A stretch of DNA of 64,000 nucleotides from a virus (Duplodnaviria > Caudoviricetes). The stretch lies in IMG/VR virus record IMGVR_UViG_3300027759_003844, positions 32,001 to 96,000 of that record; one strand, written 5' to 3'. The notes under the pieces were generated by a model that did no database searches, had not been told where the DNA came from, and saw only the letters and a list, made by a program, of their open reading frames with translations. Positions 7,340-52,027 of this stretch are shown here, in pieces (positions within the stretch are counted from its first letter, which is position 1; the number at the start of each line of letters is the position of its first letter). Both the position numbers and the translations under genes were made by a program.

Positions 7340-8254
7340 CTACTCTTTTATTTGTTTTTCAATAGCCTTCATTTGCTTATCGGTAAGCTCAATCGCACCC
7401 ATACCATTCCACTTACTATCATCATAAGTATACCAAGCACCCTTGCGAACAATAATATTCATCTCAATCGCAATATCAATCAACTCACGGCGAGCATCAA
7501 TTTGCCCCAATTGTGGCAGCACATAATAATATCCAGTAGAACCAATCGTAGGCAACTGCTTAGTCTTCTCAATAGTCCAAACAGCCCGTTGCGAAGTAAT
7601 CATATTATTCGGCTCACGCTCCATCTCGCCCTTAGACATAGAAAGAAACAACTTAATAATATTATGCATATTATGATGCACAACATTACCCATTTTTGCC
7701 TTAGTAATAGCGTACATACCACTCAAGTCAACCGTTTGATGAGCAACAAACAACATGATGTTACGCTCCTTATGAAGATAGTTCACCAGCTTCTGTAAAA
7801 AGTAGCCTTGCGAACGAGCCGACAAACCCATCGCCTTACCACCCTCAGGCTTATCATAAAACTCTTCCTTCACAATATTAGACAACGAATCAAACAAGAA
7901 AATATGCTTCTCCTTATCATCAGTCAAATACCCAATCAAACTTTTCATAATATCCTCAACAATAGTAGACTGAATCACCACCACATCAGAAATATCTAGA
8001 CCACACTTCTCAGCATACACATCACTATACGAAGACTCCGAATCAACAATAATCGGACGATACCCCATCTTCTGCGCCTCAGCCATAATTCTAAAACACA
8101 TAGTCGTTTTACCCACAGAAGGAGTACCCCAAAACAAGTGAGTCGCACCAGTATTTAATCCGCCACCTAAAGCCCGATTCAAACCGACACTGGGAGTCGG
8201 AATAACATCATGGATCGGCATCAAATCGCCTTTTCTTTTATCTACAAGTAACAT
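7340..8254 (-). CDS. recA: RecA/UvsX-like recombinase
   Basis: LNRALGGG, Walker A GTPSVGKTT, VDSE, Walker B FLFDSL, C-terminal KGAWY. Confidence 0.9.
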   Translation of the reverse strand: MLLVDKRKGDLMPIHDVIPTPSVGLNRALGGGLNTGATHLFWGTPSVGKTTMCFRIMAEAQKMGYRPIIVDSESSYSDVYAEKCGLDISDVVVIQSTIVEDIMKSLIGYLTDDKEKHIFLFDSLSNIVKEEFYDKPEGGKAMGLSARSQGYFLQKLVNYLHKERNIMLFVAHQTVDLSGMYAITKAKMGNVVHHNMHNIIKLFLSMSKGEMEREPNNMITSQRAVWTIEKTKQLPTIGSTGYYYVLPQLGQIDARRELIDIAIEMNIIVRKGAWYTYDDSKWNGMGAIELTDKQMKAIEKQIKE

Positions 8255-8263
8255 ATTTCTCCT

Positions 8264-8698
8264 TTATTGAAACATTCTATCTAGTATTCTTGATTTAATA
8301 ATTGTTGTTGAAATCTCTTCTGTATACGGGACAAACATCACGCCAATCTTATGCTCATCAAGCCATTCTTGTGTGAATCCCATTTGCTTATAGTAATCTT
8401 TACTTTGCCAGTCGGAACCAACGATTACAAGATCAGCTTTTGCCTCTATGATAGCAGGTTTAGAATCAGCACCGCCCGAGTTTACAATTACTTTATCCAC
8501 CCATTTACAAGAAGAAACAACTTCCATTCTTTCAGCCAAACTACAAATTGGAGGCTCTTTATATTGAGAGCAGAATTGATCTGTATTAACAGATACAACT
8601 AAATAGCCATCGTCACCAGCAGCTTTTTTACACCTCTCTAACAATCTAGCGTGACCAGAATGGAATAGATCAAATGTCCCGCCTGTGTATACAATCAT
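8264..8698 (-). CDS. HxGH nucleotidyltransferase (TagD/RfaE-domain-II-like cytidylyltransferase)
   Basis: YTGGTFDLFHSGH, GSDW, ISTT. Confidence 0.85.
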   Translation of the reverse strand: MIVYTGGTFDLFHSGHARLLERCKKAAGDDGYLVVSVNTDQFCSQYKEPPICSLAERMEVVSSCKWVDKVIVNSGGADSKPAIIEAKADLVIVGSDWQSKDYYKQMGFTQEWLDEHKIGVMFVPYTEEISTTIIKSRILDRMFQ

Positions 8699-9417
8699 CT
8701 TGCACCCATTGAGGCATTAACAAAATTCCATTGATTGGCATCATTGAATGTAAATTTCTCCACACCTTCAATATCAGATAGAGCATCACAGTACTCAGAC
8801 ATCACACTACCAAAATCTTTAAACTGAAAGAGGTTTGTGTCATTAACAAGAACAGTAGGAACCTCTGGAACACTCACCGTACTACAACCAATACCAGCCC
8901 AGGCTAAGACATTCCTAGAATCAAGATGTTTCACCCCGATTTTAAAATCCATGACTTCTCTTCTCCAGATATTCATACTTGCCAAAGTTGCAGCAACTAA
9001 ATACGATTTATCATTAAGTTTATTTATCAACTCTATCATTGTACCAGAAAACCCAGGCAATACTTCTCCAGAGTGTGGGGCAAATTGCATTACACGATCA
9101 ACTCCGTTCAGCATCGGCATGATAGTATCAATCGCTCCAGGAATTAAAATATCATCGTCACCAAGCACCCAGACATAATCACCAGTGCCAGCAGTAATTC
9201 CATGCAAACAATTACCATCGCAACCGATATTTTGTTTTCTAATGGAATAATCAGTGATGTAGTCCTTGTATTCGTACACCACTTGTCTTGCGTAACCATC
9301 TTGGTCGTTATCAGATACAATAATTTCAATATTAGAATTAGTTTGAGATATTATACTATCCAAACAGTAATCTAGAGAATCTCTTTTATAAGTTGGTATG
9401 TATATTGTAAGAAGCAC
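8695..9417 (-). CDS. Glycosyltransferase family 2
   Basis: IYIPTYKR, IVSDN, NIGCDGN, YVWVLGDDD. Confidence 0.85.
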   Translation of the reverse strand: MLLTIYIPTYKRDSLDYCLDSIISQTNSNIEIIVSDNDQDGYARQVVYEYKDYITDYSIRKQNIGCDGNCLHGITAGTGDYVWVLGDDDILIPGAIDTIMPMLNGVDRVMQFAPHSGEVLPGFSGTMIELINKLNDKSYLVAATLASMNIWRREVMDFKIGVKHLDSRNVLAWAGIGCSTVSVPEVPTVLVNDTNLFQFKDFGSVMSEYCDALSDIEGVEKFTFNDANQWNFVNASMGAR

Positions 9418-12400
9418 TAGGCTACTACTTTCACCAAGTTTTTTCGCTCTATATAATTATCTATATTGATGATGGAAGAATCAGACTCTACTTTGTACGA
9501 GTCCATGCGAGTCAGTGTTTGCTTTTCTTCAATCTTTGAAAGCCTTGCTGCATACCACTGCCCTTGCTTTATCACACCCTTAAGCTTTGCATAAGGTCTT
9601 GGGAAAATAACAACTTTAAAGATTTCCTTACCATCCCAGCAATAAAGGTTAGCCATTGTTTTATCTTTAGAAGTTGTGAAGACTCTAGAGTGCATTACAT
9701 ACATCAATGTCTTTTCATCACCAACATAACCCAACCCAGTTTCATGTAGCCAGTTATATTCATGGTCATCACCCTTTTGTCTAAGAGTAATAAACTTATG
9801 TAAGTCAGTGTCAATGAAATTATATGCATCACAGAACGAATGTAGTGTTCTATCCCCGATCAAAGCATAAACATAATCTCTATTCGCCATTTCAGTATTC
9901 CTGTCAGCGAATACAGTAGCTGACCCCGAGAAGTCTTCAAATTCAATTCTTAGATATTGCGGAGTCTTTTTCGTTGATCGCACAATTGCTTTAATAAGCG
10001 TCAATGGAGAATTTATTTCATGGAACTCAGAAAGATTGCCTACGAACTCATCCATCTCATTATTCTCTTCACCCGATTTAATAGAGAAACCAAGAACTGG
10101 CAGATAGTAACGCTCATGCTCGTATTGAGAAATATGATTCATTGAAACATACGCCCCAACTTTCTCAAGATTAAGACGGAGAGGCGCTTTGACAGCAGAC
10201 TTAGAACACTTATTATTAAACTCATCTAAGCAAGTAAATGGTCTCTTAGTTAGAATTTCCTTAATTGCAGAAGCACCACAGCCAGCGACATTCGTTAAAC
10301 CAAACCTAATAGCATCAAGCCCTGTTCGGCTGTCAGTTGTAAAGTATTCTTCGGAATAGTTTACATCTGGAGGAAGAATTGCAATACCTAGACGCTGGGC
10401 TTCCATAAGGTACGCAGTGATCTTTTCAGTAGAATCTTCATTATATAGTAATGACCAGATGAACTCTAGAGGGTAGTTTACCTTTAACCACATGGTCTGA
10501 TAGGACAGCATTGAGTAGGCTACAGCATGAGATTTATTGAACATATATAGAGCTGACATTTCAAACTCAGCCCACATTTTCCTTGCCTCTGCTTTTGGAA
10601 TGATTGCATTATTGACAAACTTATCTTTAAAATCTTTAAATTCACTGATGTCTCTTTTCTTTCCAATAATCTTTCTTAGCTTATCTGCATCTGACCAAGT
10701 GAAACCCGAAATCAACACAGACATCTGCATCAATTGCTCTTGGAAAATGACAGTACCATATGTTTCTTTTAATATTTCTTCAACGGACTTGTCAGGATAA
10801 TACGGTTGAGTAAATCCCTTCTTGCAATCAATATACTTCTGACCTTGCGATAACAAGGCTCCTGGTCTTACCAGAGCGTTACTTACTACAAGATCGCTAA
10901 AGTTATCAATACCCATTCTTTCAATTAGATTACGATAAGCTGCTGCATCGGTTTGGAAAACTCCAACGGTGTTGCCTTTATTAAAGTTTTCAAACACAAT
11001 AGGGTCATCTAGAGCCAATGATTGAGCCTCTACATCAATGCCTAGACGCTCTGTAACCTTCGCTAAGCAATCTTTAATCACAGATACGGTCTTTAGACCA
11101 AGAATATCTATTTTAATCAACCCAACAGCCTCTGCATCAGTCATATCAAATGCAGTAACGGTTGTTCGCTCTCCACCATCAGTTTCTTTTCTTGTTTCAA
11201 TAGGACAAACTTCGTTCAATGGAACAGACGATACAACCATACCTGCAGCATGGATTCCAACATTTCTAATTCTACCTTCAAGCCTTGTAGCCAGCTTAGG
11301 CACATCAGGATACTTGTTACAGAAAATCTTACCCTTGGGTGACTCAATTAACTCTTCAATTGTTTCAAAAAATGGAGTGATATTGTTAGTCTCTTCGTAA
11401 GAAACTTGCAATACTCTAGCAACATCTTTCACTACTGACTTAGGCTTGAATGTACCATAAGTAGTAATTGCAGCAACATGGTCTTTACCCCATCTATTCC
11501 TAAGATATTCTTTAACTTCGTTTCTTCTCTTATCCTCAAAGTCCAAGTCAATATCTGGATAGTCGTTACGCTCAGGGTTGATGAAGCGAGCGAATAGTAA
11601 ATTATATTTAATCGGGTCAACTTTAGAAATGTTCAATAGATAGGCAAGCAAGCTTCCACCTACAGAACCTCTACCAGTCCCACGACCAACATTGTTAGCG
11701 TCAGCCCAGGATGTTAGATCCCAAACAATAAGGAAATAATCAGCAAAGCCGAGTTGTTTAATAATTCCAAGTTCCTCGTCAAGTCTTACCTTGTATTCTT
11801 CACCTAAACCAAGTTCCTTCAGTCTAAACTCAGTCATCTCTCGTAGGTACTCATCTGAATTTAATGACTTTAGATATTTAGGGAGCAGATTTCTACGCTT
11901 GGTAATCTCGGCACTGCATTTGCTCGCTACCTCAATTGTATTTTCAAGAATGTCTGGTCTATCATAACCAGCATCTTTAAACCATGACAGTACCGTTTCT
12001 GCATTTGCAACATACGGATTAATATCATCAAAGCGCAAATTTCTTTCAGGATAAAGATGATTTACCTTTTCAAGAAGGTCATTACCACACTTGTGAAGCG
12101 TAGTAGCGTTTTCTTTAGCAAGATTAGTAATAGAAGCCCCGAGACTAGGGTACTGCGAAATGAGAAGCAGAACCTCTTCACAAGCTTTATCAGCGTGTGT
12201 TGGGAAATGGCAGTCAGCAGTCGCTACAGCCTTCTTATTAAAAGCCTTAGACAAATCTAATAGCCCATCATTAATCTCTTTAGGGTTCCACGCTTGTAAT
12301 TCAAAATAGAAATCATCTTTAAAGATTTTAGTAAATCTATCTGCCAACATTTCTGCACGACCAGTATTGCCAGCCTCAATCGCTTTAGCAATAGAGCTTC

Positions 12401-12815
12401 CTCTACAGCCCGACAATGAAACAATATCGTCATCCACCATACTCTCTAGTAAATCAAAATCAATTCTAGGCTTATAATAAAAATTGTCTTGCCATGATAT
12501 TTGTGATAATTTAAAAAGCTTCTTTAGCCCAGCATCATTTTTTGCAAGAAGGATTAAGTGAAAACGCTCATGCTTCCCATCACCATCGTCTTTAACAGAA
12601 GGTACAAAATACGCTTCAACGCCAAATATAGGTCGCACTGCATGCTTCTTACACGCATCCTGAAAACGGAGAACGCCTGCCATTGTTCCGTGATCTGTGA
12701 GTGCTGCTGCAAATTGCCCATTCGTGCTAGAAATTTGTGCGATCTCTTCAGGAGTAGACATCCCATCCAGTAGCGAGTGTTCGCTATGGCAATGAAGGTG
12801 AACAAACTCTGTCAC
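9417..12815 (-). CDS. dnaE: DNA polymerase III alpha subunit (C family)
   Basis: PHP HLHCHSEHSLLDG/TDHG, GRGS, PDIDLD, KIDILGL, FNKSHA. Confidence 0.95.
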   Translation of the reverse strand: MTEFVHLHCHSEHSLLDGMSTPEEIAQISSTNGQFAAALTDHGTMAGVLRFQDACKKHAVRPIFGVEAYFVPSVKDDGDGKHERFHLILLAKNDAGLKKLFKLSQISWQDNFYYKPRIDFDLLESMVDDDIVSLSGCRGSSIAKAIEAGNTGRAEMLADRFTKIFKDDFYFELQAWNPKEINDGLLDLSKAFNKKAVATADCHFPTHADKACEEVLLLISQYPSLGASITNLAKENATTLHKCGNDLLEKVNHLYPERNLRFDDINPYVANAETVLSWFKDAGYDRPDILENTIEVASKCSAEITKRRNLLPKYLKSLNSDEYLREMTEFRLKELGLGEEYKVRLDEELGIIKQLGFADYFLIVWDLTSWADANNVGRGTGRGSVGGSLLAYLLNISKVDPIKYNLLFARFINPERNDYPDIDLDFEDKRRNEVKEYLRNRWGKDHVAAITTYGTFKPKSVVKDVARVLQVSYEETNNITPFFETIEELIESPKGKIFCNKYPDVPKLATRLEGRIRNVGIHAAGMVVSSVPLNEVCPIETRKETDGGERTTVTAFDMTDAEAVGLIKIDILGLKTVSVIKDCLAKVTERLGIDVEAQSLALDDPIVFENFNKGNTVGVFQTDAAAYRNLIERMGIDNFSDLVVSNALVRPGALLSQGQKYIDCKKGFTQPYYPDKSVEEILKETYGTVIFQEQLMQMSVLISGFTWSDADKLRKIIGKKRDISEFKDFKDKFVNNAIIPKAEARKMWAEFEMSALYMFNKSHAVAYSMLSYQTMWLKVNYPLEFIWSLLYNEDSTEKITAYLMEAQRLGIAILPPDVNYSEEYFTTDSRTGLDAIRFGLTNVAGCGASAIKEILTKRPFTCLDEFNNKCSKSAVKAPLRLNLEKVGAYVSMNHISQYEHERYYLPVLGFSIKSGEENNEMDEFVGNLSEFHEINSPLTLIKAIVRSTKKTPQYLRIEFEDFSGSATVFADRNTEMANRDYVYALIGDRTLHSFCDAYNFIDTDLHKFITLRQKGDDHEYNWLHETGLGYVGDEKTLMYVMHSRVFTTSKDKTMANLYCWDGKEIFKVVIFPRPYAKLKGVIKQGQWYAARLSKIEEKQTLTRMDSYKVESDSSIINIDNYIERKNLVKVVA

Positions 12816-26765: not shown

Positions 26766-27176
26766 TTATTTCTCTTTAAGAGAAATCTCAACATTGTAAT
26801 AAGCACACTGGTTGGGAATATCTCTTCTAATTAATGTTTCTGAATATGACTCTACATAAACAACTGTATTATAGAAGGCATCATCAGGGTCCAATTTAAT
26901 TGATAGCGTAGCTGACGATGGAGCTCTAGCAAGATCATAAAGATAGTTCCGACTCTTACGACCATCAATAGTTTCTGATGGCTTGTCTGGAAGGTAGGTG
27001 AAAGAGAAGGTGTAATTATTCTTTGCGTTCTTAATAAACCTTTTTCTATTCCCGTTTAAAAGTTCGGTATTAGCAGCAGATGTAATCATACCACCACTGA
27101 ATATACGGTTATGCTCGGTAATCTCTTGCCCATTAAGGACAACAAGATGGGTGATATTAGGTTGTTGAATAGCCAT
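26766..27176 (-). CDS. Distal-tail (Dit)-like protein
   Basis: Directly follows TMP; NG..KR...K..YTFSF and final xLxE pattern. Confidence 0.6.
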   Translation of the reverse strand: MAIQQPNITHLVVLNGQEITEHNRIFSGGMITSAANTELLNGNRKRFIKNAKNNYTFSFTYLPDKPSETIDGRKSRNYLYDLARAPSSATLSIKLDPDDAFYNTVVYVESYSETLIRRDIPNQCAYYNVEISLKEK

Positions 27177-30100
27177 TAGTTAATACCATTATAGCTTGTA
27201 AATGTTCTAGACTCATTACCAGCAGCCTTATTCATTTTTGGAAGAACATTAACATTGTAACTCTTCATCATTGACTTAAACCATTCTTCTTCCCCAACAA
27301 ATGTTTCAACATTGATATTGACTGTTGATACACTGGTTGACCCACCACCAGAATAGGACGGGGAACCAGAAGGAACATTAAACTTTGAGCGGTTGATTGA
27401 CTGCATTGTTCTTACGCCCATGCTTCTTACAGCATCAGCATTAACAACATATTCACCACCATGCAAGATTGCAGGAACTTCCATTGAAGGAGCACCAGGA
27501 ACATAACCACCAGATTTAAAGCGATTACCAATCCATTCTGTATGCTTCTTAACACCGCTATACATATTGTTTCTAGAAAACAAGCGGCTGATCGCGTTAT
27601 CGCTCAAAGCAGCAATTTGGTGGGGACCATAAGAGTCTGCTATATTATAAGTTCCTTTTCCATAAGTTATCGCATTATGGTAGAAAGGTGAATCAAAGTG
27701 AGGACCAAAACCAGTATTTAACTGTTTTCCAAACACCCTAAGCAACTCATCTGCACCTGCAGTATTAGACCCATGCTCTCCGCCTCTAAAGAAAGCTTGA
27801 TCACTTAGCTTTCCTGTTTGGGATAAAGCATTCATTGCATCATTAACTTTTTGACCTGGAGAAGACCCACCCGTGAAAGTTTTAAATGAACCAGTTGGTA
27901 TTTTCAGACCCTCACCAGGTTTTGGAGTAAACCATGTATCAACAGTGTATAAATTATCCAAAGCCCCAGGGTTAGCGTCAATAACATCCTTAAGCCTCGC
28001 AACAATATAATGAGCATTTTCAATATTTGCTCTTTGTTGATGCCCTTGGACAATGTGGTTTATTGACATATGAATAGTATCTCTAATGTATTCCATAGTC
28101 CCAGTCGGGGTCTCGCTAGGAAATATTGTTTTATAGTCAGCCGTAGGTCTTAAGGCAATATTGCCAGCAGCATCAAGTGGTGGAGCAAACTGAGTCTCAT
28201 GAACTAGAAATAAATCATCTAGATTAAGTGAATCTAAACCACCACGCTTAACACTGCCTAATAAATTTTGCATTGGGTATGAAAAAGTTGAATCATCTTT
28301 TGCTTGCTGTATTATTTTTCTCCCAGCCTGCGCATAGTTATTAAACTGCATCATGGAGTTAGTATCGCCTCTTTGACCAGCATAAAGCAGTGCGTCAATC
28401 AAGTTTGTTGCAGCTCCACCTTCCTTTTTGTATGCTATATGAGCGGAAATCCAATCTCTTGATATTGCTTGACCTTCCTTGCTGAACTGGCTTAATCCAC
28501 TTATGTCATATGGGTTTAAATCAACATTTTTAAAATTATATGGTACATTAAAGCCTCCACCATTTCTCGGAAGTCCAAACCCAATATTTTCTGCTCCAAT
28601 TTTATACATTTCAAAAGACTCAGTTACAATTTGCTCTGCATCCCTCATCGCCTCTCTTGAAATAACTTGGGGGGTCAGTGGAGGACGGAATAACTCTAAG
28701 CCATTACCTGGTGCTTTTGGAAGTTTTTGGTAAAATGTTCCTGAAGTGCTTATTCTATCAAGATCGCCAAAAGGGTTTTTAATGCTTGAAAACATATTGC
28801 CCAAAGATCTAAAAATATTCGGCGGTTGAGCTTTTCCTTCAAGTTTAATCGCTTGTTGCCCTCTAGCAGCTTCAATTGCTTCTCCTAATTCTTTGGCTAT
28901 TTGACCTCTTGTTTTACCGTTTGTAACAACTTCCTGCAAAACACCCACTGGTTTGTCTGTCCATGAAATAGGGCTTTCTGCAAATGTGCTTGGCTTTAAC
29001 CCTCTAGCCCCTCCAATATAGATAGACCCAACTCTGTCCCCAGCATTAAGCGCACTATCTGCATACGGAAGTAATTTTTCTACTGCATTATCTGCTGTAG
29101 TTTTTGCGGCATCAAAAGTCCAAACTTTAGGAATAGCATTAATACCTTCTGCGGATGCAGGATTAGGGAGTAATGTTTTTAGACCCTGAATAGGCGATGC
29201 ATGATATACAAGATCAAATGCTTCTTTTTCTGCCAATACAGCAGCTTCTCGTGCCAAAGCATTGTTCATGGCAGCTGTGAACCCTGGTCTCATTATTTGA
29301 CCAAGAGTCAACTCTGTTGCGGTAAGCCCCATTTTCTCTACTGCTGCAATACCAAACGGTCTTAAAAGAGGTTTTGCAACAGCTGACACTCCAGCATTAA
29401 TTTCTGGTCCAAGAAGTGTGGTTATAATATTAAATGCATCACCCATATTCATAAGTTTATTATTAGCAACTTGTCCAAACCCGTCAGATTTACCGCCAGG
29501 AAGATTGAGACCAGTCAAGTTATTAATACCACGAATATAATTGATACCATTTTCTAAATCATGTTGATTTCTATTTTGTAAATTCTTAATTGGGTTATAA
29601 CTTAATCTTCTATCAAATAAAGCAAGTGGTGATTCAACAACACCCATTGCAATGTTATTTGCACTATTGCCAAATTTAACAAACGATTGCTGTAAGTCAA
29701 AGAGCGATTTAACTACGAACCCACCAGCTTTTGCAAATATACTCTTCTTTTCTGGCTTGACAACTGGTGCTATTGGTCCAATAAAGTTCTTAGCAAGCCC
29801 CGCATTTTTCAAGTCAGCATTTCTTTGAGCATTCCTTTGTTCTTGCGCTTTAGCGACTTGCCCTATTCTACTTGCCTCAGAAAGATGAATAACTTCAGCA
29901 GCTTTACTTGCTGCAGCAGTATTGGCATAAATACCTAAATGGTTTTTGTAACCACCATTAGCATATGCGTTAAAAGCATTAGTGTCAGATAAAATCTTTC
30001 CTTGAACAACTGTTGGCAATAATACTTCACCCTTGCCAATCCCAAAAGATGCAGAGCGAACAGTAGATACACCACCTTCACCTGCAAGATTGTTCTTAAC

Positions 30101-33100
30101 GAGTGGAAGTGATTTTAAGTTAATTGTTGGAGAAGCAACAACAGGAATTGATGTTGCATACGGACCCTGTAACGGTTGTGGTGTTTTCTTAGTAGAGTTA
30201 GCAAGAATTTTATCTTCACCACCGAACGGAATACCACCCTTCTTTGGTGCAACATATCCACCTTTAGCAAATTTTGGGATAAGGTTGTTGTTAAGCTTTT
30301 CTAATGCACCAAGACCCAATCTTGAAACAGCTTTTGCATTAAGGATATATTCCCCGCCATGAAGTAATGCTGGAACTCCTTCTTGAGTAGGGGCATTAAT
30401 GAACCCGCTTCCGATATAACTGCTCTCATCACTCCTGCTTGGAATTACTCCACCTTTTGCATAACCACGAAATGGTCCAGTTGGTTTTTTAACAACTGGC
30501 ACAACTGGTTTGGTATATCCAGTACCAAAAGCAAACTCTTGATAGGTTAATGGTTTTAAGCCCCGTGCAACTCGGCTTGCGTTATTATTTTCAAATGCAT
30601 CAGCCCTACCACCTGCGCCACCAGTAGTTGAAGGGGTACTACTCGTATCCGAAGGAGTCCCCCCAGCGTTTGCTGCAGCCTCTTGAGCTGCTGCTGCAGC
30701 ATCTGCCTGAACTTTAAGAGCTAACCACTTCTTGGTGGTTTCATCAAGATGACCACGCATCTCCGCAAACAAATCTGCATTTATTGCAACAGTATTTCTT
30801 AAACTATTAGTAATAGATATATTGCCATCAATAATAGCTTGCTCATAAATTGTTTTCCAATTGGTAACAAATTTCAATGATGCTTCTGCAAAAGGAGTTA
30901 AGAACTCTTCATCAACAATCCGCAAAATTTCTGTTTTAGCAACATCAAAATTACCAACCAAACCAGTAGAAACTAAACCAAACGCATCAATAACTGTTTG
31001 TTTCTTGTCCCCAAAAACTCCGCCTATATCGGCAAGCATTCCAAGAGTTGCGCCAATAATAGAATTTTCTTCTGGATTACCACCCAAGCCGTACTTTTTC
31101 TGTGCTTCTATAACAAGATCATCAAGGTTCATGCTGAAGGCACCAATAACTTTGTTCGGCATCTTGTCATTTATTGTTGTAACAAATGTTTCAAACATAT
31201 TGCCAAACTCTGTACTATTAGCTAGAGCTGCATCCGTAGTAATCGTATGCAATTTGTTAACTTGGTCTTGGTAATCCTGAATTGTTATAGGAGGGAACTT
31301 AGTGACTAAAGCCGCAGCCTCTTGGAACTTGACAAGTGATTCATCAAAGAACTTTCCAGCAGCTTCCTTAGCCTCATTGATAGCGGTCTTAAGAGCATCA
31401 AGATTTTCTTTTGCTAATTCCTCACTACGCTTTGTCTCAATAGCCTTCATGTCTTCAGTAAATGATTTCTCGTCTAGACCTTGTTCTAGTTGCAACATTC
31501 TTGCATCATCAACCCGACCTTCATAAACAGCTAATGCATAGTTTCTGCGATACTGTTCATCAGTGAGAGCCTTGTCATCAATACGCTTACGCTTCTCTGA
31601 CTCATAAGCCATTGTTTTCGTGAGAGACTCTTGCGCTTTTTCTAATTTATCAAGCGTTTCAATTTGGACTTGGAATACTTTTAGCGCAGCATCTTTTTGT
31701 TTCTTAAGAGCATTTTCTGCTTGCGTGAGATACTTATCTACAGCGTTCTTTAATTCACCAGCAACATAGTCTTGAAGTTCCTGAACGGCACCATCAATCT
31801 CTTTCTTCATTGCCCCAGCAAGATCTAACGCATCAGCAAAGCCATCGCCTGTGGATTGTGCGATTGCCTCGCCAGCCTCTTCGGCTTCAGGCTTAACATC
31901 ATCACCTAAGCCTTTAACCTTTCCTTTTGATTTTTTGACACCTTTACTAATACCCTTATCAAGACCGTTGGTGATAGCTCCCGCAATAGCGTCAACAGCA
32001 CCCATTGCAGCACCCTTGCCAGCATCTACCATGCCATACAAACCATCAATTACATTATCAATACCATTACCAACAGACTTTAAAAATCCCATTCCAGGAA
32101 GTTTTGATAGCCAACCAAAAGCTTTAGCAACAGCTTTCGGTATAAGTGTAAAATAACCAATGACTAACTTTATGCCAAAAGCAACAACTTGAATTACACC
32201 TTTAATTAATAGAGCAAAACCCTGTACAACAAATTTAACAACCTGATAGACAGCAGCTTTCAGGAAATCAAAAGCATCTCCCCAATTACCTTTAAATATA
32301 GAAACAACAAACATCACAATATTTATAATCATATATAAATAAGGCTGAATAACATTCATTACAAACTTCTGGAACATCCCAGCAACCCATTTAACAGCTG
32401 TTGCTATTCCGCCAAATGCTGCGGCAAGACCGCTTATTGCATCTCCCCCCTCTGCTCCGCCTTTCCCAAACATTGCAAAAAGATCAAGGAATGGTCTTGC
32501 AATTTCCAATAAAGCGTTTTTAAATATATCAAATGCTTCTTTTATTTTTGCAAAAGCACCAGAACCAGCTTCTCTAAATTTATCAAAGTTTTTTACAATA
32601 ACTAAAACAGCAATACCTATTGCGGCAATTACAACACCAATACCTGTTGATATCATTGCCAACTTCATTAACTTTAGTGCTAAAGTGCCAAGCTTTGTTG
32701 CGCTTGCAAACCCCTTCATAGCGCCAATTGCCATTTTAATAGGACCAACACCGCCTTGAGCCATCTGTTGAACTCTCAGTGCTCGCATAGCTGATTGAGC
32801 ACCTAAAATAGAGTTACGATATCCCTGCATAGCTTTTGCTGGAGCACCACCAATAGATCTCACTGTTTCCATTGCGCCAAGTTTTGCCGATGTCATCTTG
32901 CCAGCAATACCACCACGAGCAAGACGCATACCTTGATTCTCTGTAATTTGACGCTCTATGCCTTTACGAGTTGTTCTTATTACTTCCCCGCCCGTTCCTC
33001 TAGTGAGACCTCTTGCAGCAAATCTTGATTCTCTTAATGCTGAAGCATCTGCGACTTCGCCAAGCAGTTGTTTCCCACCTTTTGCATACCCACCAGTCAT

Positions 33101-35791
33101 ATTCATAACCCGACCAGCGGAGTTAACTTTCATTCCTTTTTTGGAAAGCATCCCAGTTTCATTGCGAACATATTGTTCTCCAGCAAATTTTTGTGCTGCA
33201 TTAAAAGGGTCCATTATTGCTTTATTTGCTTTAGATGCAACTCTTCTTGCACCTGTTGCAGCTGACATTTCGGATTTTAATTTTGAAGCATCTGCTGATG
33301 AAACAAATTTACCACTAGAATCAACCAGTCTACCCGCAGCGTTTGTTTTGTATCCTGATTTCTTATAAACATCTCTTGCTGTTGGCAGAGCAGTTCTATC
33401 GGATAAATCATGAGGGACATCTGGTACAACCATCCCAGCCATTTTAATATTTTTACCAACTCTTCCTGGCGTACCTACTGTACCAGCGGCTTGATTAGCC
33501 GCAATTCCTGCGGCATCCAAGGTATCCATTGATTTCATTCCTGCTCTAGTACCAGCCTCAAGCGCACCTGAAGCTTTATTCCTAAAACTATTATAAAACT
33601 TATCTATTTTTTGGCGAGCAGCTTCAGCAGAAGAACCAAAAGCGATCAACCCGCCTTCAGCATTTCTTATCTTAGGAAGAAAAAATGCAAAACTTCTACC
33701 TAAAACTCCAATAGAGGCTTGCATCGTACCCAGCGCAATAACGATTGGACCAAGCGCTGCAAGAAACAAGAGTACGCCACCAATAATTTTAGCAATATTA
33801 TCCTTAGTAGATTGAGCTAAGCCGTCCCAATATATTTGGAATTGCTCAATCTTTGCCGACAACCATTTTATTGCAGGACCAGCGGCTCTTAATATTTCAG
33901 CCGCAAATAATTTAAAGTTATTTTTTATTTTCTGGACAGAAACAGATAGAGAAGCTAAAGATACCTCTAATTCCTGACTCGCTATTTCACCAGCTGTTAG
34001 TGGTCCAGCCAGCTGGACCATCATTGCTTTCCCAGCCTCTGTTGTAATACCAGCAAAAGAATCTACTCCGCTCTGACGATCTGCTTTAACTTTTTTCGCA
34101 ACAGCCTCTCGTGCTTTCATTGCACCTTCAATATCTATGGTACTTAACTTACCACCAGTACCAGTACCCTTGTATCCTTCAACAGTCGTACCAACAGTGC
34201 CAGAAGCAACACGAGCAAGAATACCAATATCTTTAAAATTATTAATAGTTTCTTTCAAAGATGTATTGTTTAATTCATTATACGCACGAATAGCATCTTC
34301 TGCTGGTTTCGCAAGCTTAGATTCTGCTGAAGCTGTGTTTTTTAATTCTTTATTAAACATTGACAGTTGTTCAATTGCAATGTACATTCTTGGTCCCTGT
34401 CTTTTTTCAAACAATTGAGACATCAACTTCAAGGCACCTTCTTGCCCCGCAGCAGAATCTTTAACCCTGCTAAACACATCAACAATGGCTTCAAGTCCAA
34501 CTAAGCTAGTTTTTGTTGTATTCTTAAATGACTCAGTTGCCTCAGTATTAACTCCGTACTGCTTTGACAGTTGAGCCATGAAGTCTATGTTCTTTTTAGT
34601 TGGAAGAATTAATCTCTGCAAAGAAGTTTTAATTGAAGTTGCTGAAGCTCCAACATCTAGACCTGCAGCAGCCATAGGAGCAAGCATGGCTGCTGCTTCT
34701 GTCATAGACAAACCAAAAGCTGTTGCCATTGATCCAACTTCTGGAAGTGCTTTAGCGAGGTCTTGAAGAGTCAGCGTGGTAACATTTTCAATAGCATTAA
34801 ACATATTGAGCTGAACTTGCGCTGCCTTAATCGCCATTGTTTCTCTTTCACGAGCATCTGTAACTAACCTAAATGCACCATTGGCTTCTAAGGCTCTTTT
34901 AGCATTAAAGTAAAGAGCTTGAGATAAATCTTTTGCCTCACCAATATCCATTCCACCAAGTTTTTCAATAGTTGTTGTTAATTCGGTTAGTATTACAACA
35001 TTGTCTTGCCCCACGATTCCAAGTTCAGCAAACTCTGCTGCCAATCCAACAACAATCTCTTTTGAAACACCAAATTTAGAGCTAACTTTGGTTAGTTCTT
35101 TGTCCAGTGCCTTGAAATTAGCCAGCATTATGTTCATCTGCTCTAGTTGCTTCTCAGTTGGCAGCTTATCTCCCACCACACCAACTTTTATAGCAGCCTG
35201 TTCAGCACTCATTGCAACGCTATCAAATACTTTTGAAAGCCTAGTAGCTTCTTTGTCTACTGCCAGCAGTGATTGGAAACCTAATCTGCCAAACAGCATG
35301 ATAGGAGCTGTCAAGTTAATCATTAAGCTTCTACCAACGAACTGGAAGTCCTTACCCATCTTCTGCATTTTCAACGAAACGCTGGCAACATCTGAACCGA
35401 AAGCTCTAACTCTTGCACCACGCATAGCGGCACTCATAGCCTGGAGTTGTGCTCTAGTTGATGTTAACTCTCTACCCAGAGCAGTAGTAGGACCACCAGC
35501 AGATCTGATTGCTCCTGTATAAGCAATAATATTGGTTTTAAGTCTTCTAGACTCTTCACCAAGAGCTCTTTGATTTTCTTTTAACCCCTTTATTGTCTTG
35601 GCATGATCATTCATACCACGATTTGTTATACCTAACGCTTTATTTACAGCCCGACTTTGCGTGTCCAATTTGGACATTGGAATCGTGATTTCTCTTAAAT
35701 TGGCGGTTAGTGCTTTAACAGATGCGCTAAGATTAGCTACATCCTTAATTCCGTTAGTGTGGACATTGATTATAAGATCTACATCAGACAT
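27176..35791 (-). CDS. Tape measure protein with C-terminal cargo domains
   Basis: 2871 aa after the chaperone pair; helical core, hydrophobic segments, A(L/I)LHGGEY(I/V)xNA motifs. Confidence 0.92.
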   Translation of the reverse strand: MSDVDLIINVHTNGIKDVANLSASVKALTANLREITIPMSKLDTQSRAVNKALGITNRGMNDHAKTIKGLKENQRALGEESRRLKTNIIAYTGAIRSAGGPTTALGRELTSTRAQLQAMSAAMRGARVRAFGSDVASVSLKMQKMGKDFQFVGRSLMINLTAPIMLFGRLGFQSLLAVDKEATRLSKVFDSVAMSAEQAAIKVGVVGDKLPTEKQLEQMNIMLANFKALDKELTKVSSKFGVSKEIVVGLAAEFAELGIVGQDNVVILTELTTTIEKLGGMDIGEAKDLSQALYFNAKRALEANGAFRLVTDARERETMAIKAAQVQLNMFNAIENVTTLTLQDLAKALPEVGSMATAFGLSMTEAAAMLAPMAAAGLDVGASATSIKTSLQRLILPTKKNIDFMAQLSKQYGVNTEATESFKNTTKTSLVGLEAIVDVFSRVKDSAAGQEGALKLMSQLFEKRQGPRMYIAIEQLSMFNKELKNTASAESKLAKPAEDAIRAYNELNNTSLKETINNFKDIGILARVASGTVGTTVEGYKGTGTGGKLSTIDIEGAMKAREAVAKKVKADRQSGVDSFAGITTEAGKAMMVQLAGPLTAGEIASQELEVSLASLSVSVQKIKNNFKLFAAEILRAAGPAIKWLSAKIEQFQIYWDGLAQSTKDNIAKIIGGVLLFLAALGPIVIALGTMQASIGVLGRSFAFFLPKIRNAEGGLIAFGSSAEAARQKIDKFYNSFRNKASGALEAGTRAGMKSMDTLDAAGIAANQAAGTVGTPGRVGKNIKMAGMVVPDVPHDLSDRTALPTARDVYKKSGYKTNAAGRLVDSSGKFVSSADASKLKSEMSAATGARRVASKANKAIMDPFNAAQKFAGEQYVRNETGMLSKKGMKVNSAGRVMNMTGGYAKGGKQLLGEVADASALRESRFAARGLTRGTGGEVIRTTRKGIERQITENQGMRLARGGIAGKMTSAKLGAMETVRSIGGAPAKAMQGYRNSILGAQSAMRALRVQQMAQGGVGPIKMAIGAMKGFASATKLGTLALKLMKLAMISTGIGVVIAAIGIAVLVIVKNFDKFREAGSGAFAKIKEAFDIFKNALLEIARPFLDLFAMFGKGGAEGGDAISGLAAAFGGIATAVKWVAGMFQKFVMNVIQPYLYMIINIVMFVVSIFKGNWGDAFDFLKAAVYQVVKFVVQGFALLIKGVIQVVAFGIKLVIGYFTLIPKAVAKAFGWLSKLPGMGFLKSVGNGIDNVIDGLYGMVDAGKGAAMGAVDAIAGAITNGLDKGISKGVKKSKGKVKGLGDDVKPEAEEAGEAIAQSTGDGFADALDLAGAMKKEIDGAVQELQDYVAGELKNAVDKYLTQAENALKKQKDAALKVFQVQIETLDKLEKAQESLTKTMAYESEKRKRIDDKALTDEQYRRNYALAVYEGRVDDARMLQLEQGLDEKSFTEDMKAIETKRSEELAKENLDALKTAINEAKEAAGKFFDESLVKFQEAAALVTKFPPITIQDYQDQVNKLHTITTDAALANSTEFGNMFETFVTTINDKMPNKVIGAFSMNLDDLVIEAQKKYGLGGNPEENSIIGATLGMLADIGGVFGDKKQTVIDAFGLVSTGLVGNFDVAKTEILRIVDEEFLTPFAEASLKFVTNWKTIYEQAIIDGNISITNSLRNTVAINADLFAEMRGHLDETTKKWLALKVQADAAAAAQEAAANAGGTPSDTSSTPSTTGGAGGRADAFENNNASRVARGLKPLTYQEFAFGTGYTKPVVPVVKKPTGPFRGYAKGGVIPSRSDESSYIGSGFINAPTQEGVPALLHGGEYILNAKAVSRLGLGALEKLNNNLIPKFAKGGYVAPKKGGIPFGGEDKILANSTKKTPQPLQGPYATSIPVVASPTINLKSLPLVKNNLAGEGGVSTVRSASFGIGKGEVLLPTVVQGKILSDTNAFNAYANGGYKNHLGIYANTAAASKAAEVIHLSEASRIGQVAKAQEQRNAQRNADLKNAGLAKNFIGPIAPVVKPEKKSIFAKAGGFVVKSLFDLQQSFVKFGNSANNIAMGVVESPLALFDRRLSYNPIKNLQNRNQHDLENGINYIRGINNLTGLNLPGGKSDGFGQVANNKLMNMGDAFNIITTLLGPEINAGVSAVAKPLLRPFGIAAVEKMGLTATELTLGQIMRPGFTAAMNNALAREAAVLAEKEAFDLVYHASPIQGLKTLLPNPASAEGINAIPKVWTFDAAKTTADNAVEKLLPYADSALNAGDRVGSIYIGGARGLKPSTFAESPISWTDKPVGVLQEVVTNGKTRGQIAKELGEAIEAARGQQAIKLEGKAQPPNIFRSLGNMFSSIKNPFGDLDRISTSGTFYQKLPKAPGNGLELFRPPLTPQVISREAMRDAEQIVTESFEMYKIGAENIGFGLPRNGGGFNVPYNFKNVDLNPYDISGLSQFSKEGQAISRDWISAHIAYKKEGGAATNLIDALLYAGQRGDTNSMMQFNNYAQAGRKIIQQAKDDSTFSYPMQNLLGSVKRGGLDSLNLDDLFLVHETQFAPPLDAAGNIALRPTADYKTIFPSETPTGTMEYIRDTIHMSINHIVQGHQQRANIENAHYIVARLKDVIDANPGALDNLYTVDTWFTPKPGEGLKIPTGSFKTFTGGSSPGQKVNDAMNALSQTGKLSDQAFFRGGEHGSNTAGADELLRVFGKQLNTGFGPHFDSPFYHNAITYGKGTYNIADSYGPHQIAALSDNAISRLFSRNNMYSGVKKHTEWIGNRFKSGGYVPGAPSMEVPAILHGGEYVVNADAVRSMGVRTMQSINRSKFNVPSGSPSYSGGGSTSVSTVNINVETFVGEEEWFKSMMKSYNVNVLPKMNKAAGNESRTFTSYNGIN

Positions 35792-45851: not shown

Positions 45852-46691
45852 TTATGCTAGCAACGCAGCCCAAGTTGGTTGATCAACTTCACCCGTCACT
45901 GGAACACCTTTTGCTTTTTGAAATTGCTTTACAATTTCTTGTGTTTTAGGTCCAAAATCACCATCTTCTTTGCAAGGGAAACCTTTTTCATTTAATAAAG
46001 ATTGAGCCTTTCTAACCGCTTGACCTTTATTATCTTTGATAATGACAGGCTGTGAAGCAGCGGCAGTAACATTTGGTTTTGGTTCAGCAACTTTTGCTTC
46101 AGCAGCAGCTTTCTGTTCCGCTACAGTTCCAAACATCCCGACTGGTTTTGGATTGCGAGCAACATACTCTTGTACAGCAGCAGTTGGGTTATCCCCAGAT
46201 ACATAACGAATGTGCCAAGGTTCCTCTGGAACAACTTCCCAACTCCACCCGAATTTTTCAACATTAGCAATTAACCAATTAATTCTTTTCTTTTCGGAGG
46301 CATTAGCAATATCCACAGCCAACCCGAGATTATGTTGCGACTTACCTGGTGTCGCTAGCATCGCCATACCTTTCTTCAAATACCAAGTTTTACCTTCAAA
46401 AGTTTTTGTTGAACCAGTACCTGTATTTTCAAGACTGTAGCGACTTAAAAATCCAGCCTTTTGGCTGTCATAACTGCGATATAAATCACCGCTGCTCGTG
46501 GGCTTAAGCTCTACGCCAGCAGCTTTTGCAGCCTCAACCATTGCATTCCAAGCATCAGCTGCAAGATAAAATAACTTTCCACCTGACGGAATGTCCCGCA
46601 ACAAACTTGGGTGTAACTTACCTGGCTCTACATTTCTTAATGCGGCAGGCATCTTAACGGGAACGATATAATCCCATTCAACTTTAGCCAT
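45852..46691 (-). CDS. Endolysin: M15-family peptidase + peptidoglycan-binding domain
   Basis: YRSY, PGKSQHNLGLAVD, EPWH; DGDFGPKT...FQ...TGEVD..TW. Confidence 0.85.
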   Translation of the reverse strand: MAKVEWDYIVPVKMPAALRNVEPGKLHPSLLRDIPSGGKLFYLAADAWNAMVEAAKAAGVELKPTSSGDLYRSYDSQKAGFLSRYSLENTGTGSTKTFEGKTWYLKKGMAMLATPGKSQHNLGLAVDIANASEKKRINWLIANVEKFGWSWEVVPEEPWHIRYVSGDNPTAAVQEYVARNPKPVGMFGTVAEQKAAAEAKVAEPKPNVTAAASQPVIIKDNKGQAVRKAQSLLNEKGFPCKEDGDFGPKTQEIVKQFQKAKGVPVTGEVDQPTWAALLA

Positions 46692-49624: not shown

Positions 49625-49918
49625 TTAGTTAAACCACCACCAATTTTTAAGAATAGATAGAGAAGCTAAAATTACCCACAAAATATTAAACCAGATAATA
49701 GTCGGCATTGTCTTAATAGTTGAAGTTACGATTAAAGAAAAACTTGACGCTAACGCAAACACATACAACCACCACCACTGAACTCCAAAAAGAAGACCTG
49801 GGAATATGATTGCAATCTTGGTCATGAAAGCCCAAGCTTCAATGATGTTTACCTTAGACCAATACTCACGAGTACCCCATTTTTTTGAGATATGTACAAT
49901 ATCATTTAACTTCATCAT
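49625..49918 (-). CDS. Small multi-TM membrane protein
   Basis: About three hydrophobic, Trp-rich segments. Confidence 0.65.
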   Translation of the reverse strand: MMKLNDIVHISKKWGTREYWSKVNIIEAWAFMTKIAIIFPGLLFGVQWWWLYVFALASSFSLIVTSTIKTMPTIIWFNILWVILASLSILKNWWWFN

Positions 49919-51495
49919 GGCTTGCCTCCATAATATTTATCTTTCAAGTATTCATATAAAGTAGGGCATTTTAACGCTTTCTTTTCCCAAAGCAATCTTC
50001 TAGACTCCATTAAATCAAATGTTGGCTGAAGTAGTTGGGCAACATTTTGCCCAGTAACAAATTCCCTTATTTTAAGATAGACACGATTTGCCGTATAAAA
50101 ATGCATTCCGACACCAACCCAGATTGCAGAAGTCCACCTAAGCGGATACGAATCATCTCTTTTAAATGTTTGCATATTAAATCTAAAATTATTTATATTT
50201 TCGTTATGATCAATATCATTATGCATAGAAGTTACATGTCGCCAATATTCAGTATCATCTCTTTTACTTAGGCAATAATGTATTTTAACAAAATCGGTAA
50301 AATCATCAAACCTTTGCGTTACTGATTTATTAAAAACATCAATATCCCATTGATTAATAAAATCATGATCTAGTATTTTCAATAATTCATATATGATTTC
50401 CTGAATTGAATACAGACCATTACTTTCTAAAGGTTCTATGAACCCAGCAGAAAGACCCACGGCAACAACATTTTTCACCCAAATTCTTTCATGCCTTCCC
50501 GCTTTAAATGTTAAATTTCTAAATTTAAGATTATCAATATCTTCTTCAGTTCTTGCTACTTTTAATTTAAATTTTAAATAATTTTTTAATTCATTAAGCG
50601 CATCTTCATCAGTTGTAAATTTATCACTATAGACATAACCAATCCCAAGTCTTGAGTACAAGCCTATATTCCAAACCCAACCATTATCTAATGCAACACA
50701 GCGAGTTTTGTTATTTAATTCAATATTTTTTTCTTTGTACGGTATCTGAACTGCCCACGCATGATTGTTCGGCAAAAAAGATTCATATGATATATATTTT
50801 TCTTTTAATGTTTGTTCAAGCAGTAGGCTTAAAAACCCAGTGCAGTCTATATATAAATCAGCTTTAATTTTAGATTTATTTTCTAAAATCAAACTCTCAA
50901 TTCCATAATCATCAGTTGGTATCTCAACAACCTTGGATAAAATATGGGTGATGCCTCTTGGTATACAATAGTTATTTTTCAACCATTGACCAAATTTTAC
51001 TGCATCAAAATGCAAAGATGTATCTCTTATTGAGTTAAAATTTGGGAATAGATTATCTTCATTATCTGTAAATCTATTATGCTTAACCAATAAAGCTTGT
51101 GGGTAATGAGATTCTGCAAACTCCGTAATAGGGGTTTCTGGATACAGTAACTTCTTAATCTGCCAATCCTGAACCCCGTCTTGATTCAAGTCATACAGAC
51201 CTTGACCAAATGGATATATAAAATCATTTAAATCATCTTTACGATAAAACTCGGAAAACTCCACCGCAATTTTTATAGATGCATCCGTATAAGCAAAAAA
51301 ATCAGATCTATCAATTTCAAGAAGTTCAAAAAAGTAATTGATCCGATCAAATGTACTTTCTCCAACACCAATAATTGGGTCATCTGGACTTTCAATCAAT
51401 GTAATATTTTTATCTGGAAAAAACTTAACCAGGGCGGCAGCTGTCATCCACCCAGCAGAACCACCGCCGACTATTGCAATTGAATCAACTTTCAT
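49915..51495 (-). CDS. Flavin-dependent tryptophan-halogenase-family protein
   Basis: IVGGGSAG, GVGEST, Lys at the catalytic position (DASIK), DCTGF, GWVWNI, FIEPLES. Confidence 0.9.
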   Translation of the reverse strand: MKVDSIAIVGGGSAGWMTAAALVKFFPDKNITLIESPDDPIIGVGESTFDRINYFFELLEIDRSDFFAYTDASIKIAVEFSEFYRKDDLNDFIYPFGQGLYDLNQDGVQDWQIKKLLYPETPITEFAESHYPQALLVKHNRFTDNEDNLFPNFNSIRDTSLHFDAVKFGQWLKNNYCIPRGITHILSKVVEIPTDDYGIESLILENKSKIKADLYIDCTGFLSLLLEQTLKEKYISYESFLPNNHAWAVQIPYKEKNIELNNKTRCVALDNGWVWNIGLYSRLGIGYVYSDKFTTDEDALNELKNYLKFKLKVARTEEDIDNLKFRNLTFKAGRHERIWVKNVVAVGLSAGFIEPLESNGLYSIQEIIYELLKILDHDFINQWDIDVFNKSVTQRFDDFTDFVKIHYCLSKRDDTEYWRHVTSMHNDIDHNENINNFRFNMQTFKRDDSYPLRWTSAIWVGVGMHFYTANRVYLKIREFVTGQNVAQLLQPTFDLMESRRLLWEKKALKCPTLYEYLKDKYYGGKP

Positions 51496-51505
51496 AACAC
51501 CTCTT

Positions 51506-52027
51506 TTAAATTGGTATAAGCCCTGTATTCCCAAACGGGACATTTATTTGTTCGGTTATGTCGTAACCAATAGTTATTCTATGCCCGCTGAATGGCTCAA
51601 CCGCTTCTACTTTATGCATCTTATGACCTTCGCCAAAATATATTTGCCCAATTTTATTTTCAATTTCAAAATCTTCAAATATAGTTTTACTGTTTTTAGG
51701 ATCTATACAGACATATCCATGCCAATCCCATAGATGGTTATGCCAGTTTAGCAGGTTATCTTTAGTTTGAAAATTCAACCATGCCTGCATCCAAAGAGGT
51801 TGGTCGTACCCAAGATTATTCCGTACAATTGTTTTAATTTCATTAAACAGTTTATACATTAACAAATCTGTGGATGTAATAGAAAATACATTATAGATGG
51901 GATATGCTTTTGTTGTATCTTCTGCACCGAATTTCTTTTTAATAAAAGACTTGCCTGTGGTCAATAAATCAATATAGTGTTGTTGATTTTCAACTATTGT
52001 CGGAGATATTACTATTTCTTTTATCAT
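51506..52027 (-). CDS. Putative 2OG-Fe(II)/cupin oxygenase
   Basis: AWLN, WHNH, HKV, RITIGYD. Confidence 0.65.
   Translation of the reverse strand: MIKEIVISPTIVENQQHYIDLLTTGKSFIKKKFGAEDTTKAYPIYNVFSITSTDLLMYKLFNEIKTIVRNNLGYDQPLWMQAWLNFQTKDNLLNWHNHLWDWHGYVCIDPKNSKTIFEDFEIENKIGQIYFGEGHKMHKVEAVEPFSGHRITIGYDITEQINVPFGNTGLIPI

Follow-up and report, generated by a model that had tools for sequence, protein, structure and literature searches.

A duplicated gpH-type module brackets exchangeable cargo in the tape measure protein of an uncultured freshwater phage

Why does a phage tape measure protein (TMP) hold several hundred amino acids (aa) between two copies of the same small module near its C-terminus, and is this interval a cargo that the tail brings into the host? 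The question is raised by a 2871-aa protein encoded in a 64,000-nucleotide (nt) stretch of viral DNA (positions 32,001 to 96,000 of IMG/VR record IMGVR_UViG_3300027759_003844), which we call the window and whose positions are used throughout. The source record, from an uncultured freshwater phage, has 109,177 bp and is rated complete. An earlier sequence-only reading of the window had suggested that the TMP delivers swappable effectors for host takeover or against host defence. Comparison with related phages supports well that the two modules bracket a swappable cassette. Our favoured reading, to which we give a probability of roughly 0.5, is that the TMP has a C-terminal plug-in slot whose cargo is exchanged by recombination and delivered on infection; the tail would probably bring exchangeable, ready-made proteins into the host.

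The duplicated gpH-type module

The protein is a genuine TMP, as the sequence-only reading held. Pfam family PF10145 (PhageMin_Tail) matches aa 268-446 with an E value of 9.1e-12 (score 45.7 bits, cut-off 33.2), eight tape measure families of PHROG match the protein (best E 8.5e-30), and the gene neighbourhood agrees. Upstream lie the gene of a 192-aa tail protein with an immunoglobulin (Ig) domain and small open reading frames (ORFs); downstream are the genes of tail-tip proteins of 136, 364 and 1303 aa, followed by the tail fiber gene. The gene order around the TMP gene is syntenic across 37 related loci, and the ruler part is 77%/65% identical to the TMP of one of them, L003. A megablast search with the TMP gene against 50,697 phage records gave zero matches.

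The end motif of the TMP had been noticed to occur twice, about 950 aa apart, and both observations held. VPALLHGGEYILNAKAV (from aa 1806, nt 30376) and VPAILHGGEYVVNADAV (from aa 2772, nt 27478) are the 17-residue cores of a module that occurs in two copies of ~65 aa each (Table 1); they lie in one frame with 949 aa between them. A profile of the module, built with both copies included, finds exactly two copies in the window TMP, and between the two profile envelopes are 899 aa. When the two stretches of ~67 aa were compared by BLASTP, 21 of 54 residues were identical and 35 of 54 positive (E 1e-12). At the DNA level the ~50-nt cores of the two copies are about three quarters identical, a long exact repeat is absent, and the differing bases often fall in codons for identical residues. 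This degree of identity in the cores without a long exact repeat suggests that the duplication is old and that both copies are held by selection on the protein. It points to a duplication preserved at the protein level, and neither to a recent repeat nor to an assembly artefact.

The module is homologous to the C-terminal region of gpH, the TMP of phage lambda. We compared a profile of 25 module copies, from the window TMP and its relatives, with lambda gpH 731-776 by hhalign, and obtained a probability of 83.3% (E 8.6e-6 over 46 columns), a moderate but not overwhelming score. PHROG TMP profiles match the C-terminal 1132 aa at the two modules only. Copy 1 is bracketed by the joints YAKGGV and FAKGGY, and the joint FKSGGY precedes copy 2. 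The joints flanking the modules fit the pattern [FY]xxGG[YV], and lambda has an equivalent, FATGGF, at the matching place. Like the window TMP, gpH has a module of ~45-65 aa (gpH 731-776: ATGGF...PAGIVHRGEFVFTKEATSRIGVGNL) near its C-terminus, with a Gly-rich region ahead of it and a short conserved end behind it. There is one module and no insert in gpH, whereas the window TMP has two modules with a long interval between them.

The 59 residues behind copy 2 are conserved whatever cargo precedes them. They are 93% identical in P0012, 77-88% in most two-module relatives and 63% in L027, and the length after the last module is 59-76 aa in all complete relatives except P0027 (100 aa). We infer that this tail is the hub-binding end, because lambda gpH uses residues 818-849 to bind the hub protein gpI (PMC12617516), and T5 pb2 its last 35 residues to bind the hub plug (PMC10038345).

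Both borders of the interval were checked in sequencing runs. The junction between copy 1 and the cargo (nt 30253) is bridged at 100% identity by contig pieces of runs X1, X2 and X3, of which X1 may be the source sample. A piece of X5, a lake run of 2025, spans the junction between the cargo and copy 2 (nt 27556), and 33 of its 1227 letters differ; X1 leaves nt 27476-27725 without cover.

Some observations on strain variation were made in the same runs. The lake-water strain in X5 is 95-99% identical to the window and has pieces on cargo module A and on module C with copy 2, and none over nt ~28817-29877, where modules B1 and B2 lie. Its loose ends at nt 28817 and 29877 point away. The gap might reflect another cassette variant, and absent cover proves nothing. 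In several runs unitigs end at both motif cores (window 27475/27481 and 30341), which is consistent with strain-level branching; short contigs of low depth break for many reasons.

Variation at the cassette site among related phages

The 37 related loci came from a scan of IMG/VR, and the TMP frame was read at each locus and searched with the module profile. Seven of them (L030-L032 and L034-L037) have one module followed by 63-76 aa. In five (L002-L006) two modules stand in tandem with nothing between, the second copy being degenerate, and 17 have two modules with 639-1693 aa of differing cargo between them. Eight could not be classified (contig beginning inside the gene, or neighbouring ORF read). 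Inter-module intervals of 580-1862 aa were found in database proteins from an exhaustive HMMER search, and P0027 and P0039 have three modules and two inserts each.

The tandem arrangement of the L003 type is, judged from its alignment, an empty site. A single stretch of L003 aligns to copy 1 of the window TMP with the sequence upstream of it, and also to copy 2 with the sequence downstream. In L003 (...KFAKGGYVPSAPSM...) one module runs straight into the next.

The second module core of L002-L006, at TMP aa ~1878-1935, has SFSAALQGGDYGISASAM in place of VPAILHGGEYVVNADAV. Such a degenerate second module may be the scar of a cargo loss or an empty acceptor site.

The cargo itself is mosaic, and in all-against-all comparisons the shared fractions range from none to 0.99. 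The window cargo has nothing in common with the cargos of L027 and P0027a. It turns over while the surrounding genes stay alike: the flanking genes of L003-L006 are 93% (downstream) and 93-97% (upstream) identical to those of the window, and these loci have no cargo. L013 is 98.5%, 80% and 95% identical in three downstream genes, yet has a cargo of 1693 aa, 15% of whose length matches the window cargo, while 28% of the window cargo matches it. P0012 shares 80% of its residues with the window TMP over aa 1-1987 and 93% over the C-terminal 114 aa; its interval, of 1823 aa, is a different one.

Where the sequences part was also compared. Right-hand breakpoints cluster at aa ~2747-2759, just ahead of copy 2, with exceptions at 2694 (L024/L026) and 2742 (L027), and on the left the sequences part at more than one module border (aa 1853, 1868, 1987-1997 and 2098). 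This pattern suggests that the motif marks the slot, but that exchange occurs between cargo modules too. The motif had been proposed as the boundary of the cassette; this is so for the sharp right border, and not for the left side, where breakpoints are spread over several cargo borders. Conserved flanks with variable inserts, as anticipated for related TMPs, were found in the forms described above (one module, empty tandem, differing cargo and three modules). Relatives' cargo is mostly without Pfam matches.

P0101 (357 aa), probably a C-terminal TMP fragment, has module A, then one gpH-type module, then the conserved tail. From this layout, the cargo can be as small as module A alone.

Table 1. 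Location of the TMP gene and of its parts. Residues are those of the 2871-aa protein and positions are those of the window.
Feature	Residues	Position	Strand	Basis or remarks
TMP gene	1-2871	27176..35791	(-)	Single uninterrupted 8616-nt frame (ORF list and translation)
Ruler part	1-1778	30458..35791	(-)	Hydropathy scan and full-length alignment with relatives' TMPs
Ruler hydrophobic stretch 1	665-699	33695-33799	(-)	Hydropathy scan
Ruler hydrophobic stretch 2	1037-1073	32573-32683	(-)	Hydropathy scan
Ruler hydrophobic stretch 3	1143-1222	32126-32365	(-)	Hydropathy scan
gpH-type module, copy 1	1779-1846	30254..30457	(-)	Profile match, E 2.6e-25; PHROG TMP C-terminal regions match
Cargo module A	1860-1990	29822..30214	(-)	Small conserved domain, GNIDL..RP.V.N..G..STVRS....GEVL.PTV...G.HLG...A...A..LH
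Cargo module B1	~1995-2190	29222..29809	(-)	Gly/Asn-rich, helical at low confidence
Cargo module B2	~2191-2320	28832..29221	(-)	Small alpha/beta domain; H2197 (VYHxSP), Y2258 (GSIYIG), E2287 (VLxE)
Cargo module C	~2371-2760 (feature bounds ~2375-2745)	27557..28669	(-)	Confidently folded multi-subdomain unit
Core of module C	~2516-2648	27848-28246	(-)	Beta-rich
gpH-type module, copy 2	2746-2812	27356..27556	(-)	Profile match, E 1.2e-29
Conserved C-terminal tail	2813-2871	27179..27355	(-)	Putative hub-binding end

Nearly all long ORFs of the window are on the minus strand, and three further genes on that strand deserve mention. A 279-aa protein (window 45852-46691) consists of a stretch matching a TMP family of PHROG (phrog_16823 positions 916-1070, E 6e-39) and an endolysin-like C-terminal half; a wall-hydrolase unit that is found inside TMPs elsewhere is a separate gene in this phage. 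A 542-aa gene (window 49915-51543) matches the PHROG family 'tryptophan halogenase' (E 1.3e-133), an unusual auxiliary enzyme for a phage. A DNA polymerase of 1132 aa (window 9417-12815; phrog_405, E 1e-289) has genes of a primase, a DnaB-like helicase and an exonuclease near it, so that the phage carries its own replication set as separate genes.

The cargo modules

The cargo modules were delimited by the exhaustive HMMER search, which was made with aa 1860-2766 and returned 883 proteins at E<=1e-3, together with local re-alignments. Module C is the most confidently folded part. Its AlphaFold2 (AF2) model, with a predicted local distance difference test score (pLDDT) of 87.9 and a predicted template modelling score (pTM) of 0.85, has in order a beta-rich N-part, a helical bundle, the beta-rich core and a helical C-part. 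Seven polar residues are near-invariant: H2531, R2570, H2574, N2578, N2607, D2618 and H2698. A Foldseek search of the PDB with module C found nothing at E<=1e-3, and a fold search of BFVD gave two matches at that level, both uncharacterised phage proteins. The core has weak fold matches to ADP-ribosyltransferases (ARTs). It has a first-strand His and, on a later strand, R..x..H, which recall the 'H-H-h' ARTs of the Tpt1/KptA type, and an ART fold of the core is possible on the model. A search for PF01885 (Tpt1/KptA) at E<=10 found none in the genome.

Module C is not confined to the window TMP. It occurs in other giant TMPs (P0005, P0006, P0013, P0021, P0116 and others), as shorter proteins that lack the TMP module, and in non-TMP giants, where it is accompanied by GNAT, RNase_T exonuclease and ADPrib_exo_Tox domains (P0009), by GNAT and RNase_T (P0008 and P0061), or by RNase_T (P0015, P0017 and P0048). 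This distribution hints, from the company that the module keeps, that it may act on nucleic acids or nucleotides. A word-based protein search with module C gave six matches, all 'hypothetical protein' or unnamed. In the Protein Atlas modules A and C scored 0.78-0.81 to unnamed viral clusters, which is under the lead level.

A locus search with one polyvalent-type protein as the query found a further setting of module C. On L044, a viral contig of 75.7 kb, a 1204-aa protein (7962-11576, plus strand) is a DnaQ/RNase_T-type exonuclease fused to module C. Its neighbours are genes of a primase/helicase, a ribonucleotide reductase, a dCMP deaminase and an RNase E-like protein.

Module B2 is a small alpha/beta domain in its AF2 model (pLDDT ~70-78), and the exhaustive search found two homologues only, P0091 and P0106. 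The His, Tyr and Glu listed in Table 1 are on predicted strands and invariant in 3/3 sequences, a set too small to be decisive. Their order is presumably that expected of ARTs of the H-Y-E type, and they are candidates for the catalytic triad that such ARTs have on strands 1, 2 and 5. In a Foldseek search of the PDB the top three matches of B2 were rifampin ARTs (E 8.9e-3, 9.5e-3 and 0.08), with further weak matches to CC0527, Tpt1 and PARP1; the matches to ARTs score below confidence thresholds. Like minimal ARTs such as the rifampin ART Arr and the Rhs toxins TreX and TreTu, which are its best fold matches, B2 has a size of about 125-140 aa. It is unlike them in having no sequence-profile match to any ART family. 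On the model, B2 likely has an ART fold.

A word-based search of longer proteins with aa 2141-2350 found nothing at E<=1e-3, even though P0091 and P0106 had come up in the exhaustive search. A search for related loci with the B2 alignment brought up a single locus, which was rejected, being a chance match of IPKVWTF in a different protein.

Module A is, from its distribution, a conserved autonomous domain, with many stand-alone homologues of ~110-125 aa as well as fused forms. By tblastn it is 38-41% identical to the C-terminal end of an 'IVP-C-like protein' of Klebsiella phage Klyazma and to a part of a 937-aa virion protein of Salmonella phage SPN1S, which adjoins internal virion proteins. 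When the C-terminal 1132 aa were searched by tblastn against phage records, the only matches were to module A and to copy 1 of the gpH-type module (15 records, all <60% identity). Module A had no sequence match in Pfam or the PDB. Module B1, which was modelled together with B2 and without module A, has homologous stretches in other TMP cargos (P0005, P0007, P0049 and L024/L026).

The sequence-only reading had described at least three globular, enzyme-like segments, two of them ART-like. Module C has a confident fold, B2 a moderate one, and A is a domain by sequence, whereas B1 is helical at low confidence and does not fit the description. The ART proposal gained weak support from fold matches of B2 and of the core of C, and none from sequence profiles. 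Residue patterns and sub-threshold fold matches together suggest an ART reading of these two parts. B2 and C are unannotated families with conserved residues of active-site type, and they merit biochemical study.

Delivery of the cargo and comparison with known systems

In the favoured reading, recombination at or near the borders of the gpH-type module and of the cargo modules would add, drop or swap cargo, while the ruler, the tail end and the neighbouring genes stay conserved. During tail assembly the extreme C-terminus of the TMP would dock in the hub, which is what happens in lambda and T5. The cargo would probably be compact, or unfolded in part; cleavage at the Gly-Gly joints, in the manner of gpH and pb2, may or may not release it. 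On infection it would leave first and enter the cell envelope ahead of both the DNA and the channel-forming ruler. The core of C and B2 would then most likely act as ART-fold enzymes that use nicotinamide adenine dinucleotide (NAD) on host or nucleic-acid targets, and A and B1 would more likely serve envelope passage.

In lambda a C-terminal fragment of ~14 kDa, gpHC, is cut from gpH in tail maturation; it holds the module stretch and stays in the virion, and gpH is not known to have an enzymatic activity (PMC12617516). T5 pb2 is cut after R1127, and the fragment pb2C, which has a metallopeptidase motif, stays in the tip and is proposed to be expelled first, into the periplasm (PMC10038345). 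Like the arrangement proposed here, T5 thus has a C-terminal TMP piece with an enzyme domain that would be first out on infection. The T5 cargo is one muralytic metallopeptidase fragment of 92 residues, whereas the window cargo is ten times larger, multi-domain, exchangeable and without a wall-hydrolase signature.

In Thermus phage P23-45 the TMP gp96 is fused to a working virion RNA polymerase, and relatives occur with and without the fusion (PMC10770324). This TMP carries a cytoplasm-acting enzyme into the host. The remark in the sequence-only reading that accessory domains of TMPs are usually cell-wall hydrolases was fair, with gp96 as a case in which a cytoplasmic enzyme is already carried. 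The cargo of gp96 is N-terminal, a single conserved enzyme and without bounding repeats, whereas the window TMP has a mosaic, C-terminal cargo framed by copies of the gpH-type module.

Polyvalent proteins are giants in which unrelated effector-type domains are strung together and travel with the DNA (Iyer et al. 2017, PMC5512222). Module C recurs in proteins of 3000-4700 aa whose GNAT, ADPrib_exo_Tox and RNase_T domains are of this sort. The carriers described by Iyer et al. are of the MuF, portal, relaxase and DarB types, and 'tape measure' or 'tape-measure' has 0 occurrences in the text of that paper. The window protein differs in that its carrier is a TMP and its cargo, whose domains would have effector-type roles, stands between repeated modules. 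In kind the cassette belongs with TMPs in which enzymes are embedded and with polyvalent proteins. Cargo cassettes of TMPs with modules as their bounds were found described nowhere in the literature, in a search that did not cover subscription-only papers and supplements.

A broader proposal can be made tentatively, and we consider it possible but not probable. The gpH-type module may be a portable loading-and-release unit, such that a polypeptide between two modules is held in the distal lumen, cut at the [FY]xxGG joints and fired ahead of the DNA. Siphophage TMPs would then be a general modular platform for effector injection, analogous to the VgrG/PAAR/Rhs carriers of type VI secretion. Their cargo pool would be common with that of polyvalent proteins and would include ART-fold enzymes not recognised so far, among them B2 and C (the latter with its H...R..H..N...N...D...H site), which would blunt defence by modifying nucleic acids or proteins of the host.

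Several points weigh against the favoured reading. By estimate, at a typical density of protein, three copies of the 899-aa cargo (~300 kDa) would need ~30 nm of a 4-nm lumen even when densely packed. To fit, the cargo would have to be packed tightly or unfolded in part, and tails may exceed somewhat the length of those in relatives without cargo. As to the enzymes, the C-terminal 1132 aa match 0 Pfam families at E<=10 and 0 NCBIfam families, and sequence searches of the PDB with modules A, B2 and C gave nothing relevant and no ART. The B2 model was built from three sequences, and in VIA-align comparisons with B2 formyltransferase-type chains score equal to ART chains. B2 and module C show no link by hhalign (probability 0.5%). 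The model of B1 has helices only, with a pLDDT of ~26-43, poor order and no confident fold. The L044 fusion stands in a replication and nucleotide block and not in a virion block, so that module C alone is no marker of injected proteins, as gene context would have it. Finally, the cargo of some relatives (P0021 and P0027 only) includes transglycosylase-like and reprolysin-like peptidase domains, which fit envelope breaching better than host takeover.

The last point belongs to the rival that survives best, although we think it unlikely: the cargo would be machinery for envelope penetration, expelled into the periplasm and varying as host envelopes vary, and not a set of effectors for takeover or against defence. 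T5 pb2C is a precedent for such a role (PMC10038345); the transglycosylase-like and metallopeptidase domains of relatives, the Gly-rich, helical and poorly ordered B1, and module A, which is common to podovirus internal virion proteins that are ejected into the envelope, agree with it as well. The window cargo itself does not, having no match to a peptidase, lysozyme or transglycosylase family of Pfam and none to any wall-hydrolase family. Module C is also found fused to an RNase_T exonuclease within a replication block, and it occurs in giants that have GNAT and ART domains; such activities are of a cytoplasmic type. The best fold matches of B2 are transferases that use NAD.

It is rather improbable that the cargo works in assembly only, or is cut off and discarded, for example as an intramolecular chaperone or a spacer, so that nothing is delivered. 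Cleavage near the gpH-type module takes place during tail maturation in the TMPs of both lambda and T5, and lambda may lose three of its six gpHC copies from the virion (PMC12617516). The cleaved C-terminal fragments were nevertheless found to remain in the virion in both phages. The close relatives L003-L006 assemble without any cargo, which shows that it is not needed for assembly, and a discarded spacer would hardly keep a confident fold with seven near-invariant polar residues that is common to stand-alone and polyvalent proteins.

More improbable still is that the extra residues only lengthen the ruler, giving longer tails with no separate function. In siphophages, lambda among them, the length of the tail is set by that of the TMP (PMC12617516), and B1 is predicted to be helical; C and B2, however, are predicted as compact alpha/beta units and not as coiled coil. 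The first gpH-type module precedes the cargo, and in lambda this module belongs to the fragment that is cut from the ruler. The cargo differs by up to ~1800 aa among phages with 93-98% identity in their tail tube and tip genes. The record is metagenome-derived, and unitigs from public runs break at the core of each motif; even so, a chimeric assembly, or a misreading of separate genes as a single frame, is very improbable, given the single uninterrupted frame, the matching architecture in 17 loci from many contigs and the bridging of both junctions by pieces of other runs (at 100% in X1-X3, with 33/1227 letters differing in X5).

A survey of mosaicism in phage proteins from 2023 could confirm no genuine recent case in TMPs (PMC10684548). 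The window TMP supplies such a case: the mosaicism of its domains is clear and recent. Should the cargo be delivered, as the plug-in slot reading proposes, long-tailed phages would have a second route for ready-made proteins, beside the head-packaged T4 Alt and MuF or polyvalent fusions. It would be a delivery route with a defined slot for fast domain exchange, and it would explain TMPs that are far longer than the tail requires. Reading between gpH-type modules would then be a handle for finding new enzymes that modify the host or act against its defence, and the slot would suggest a site for engineering phages with chosen proteins.

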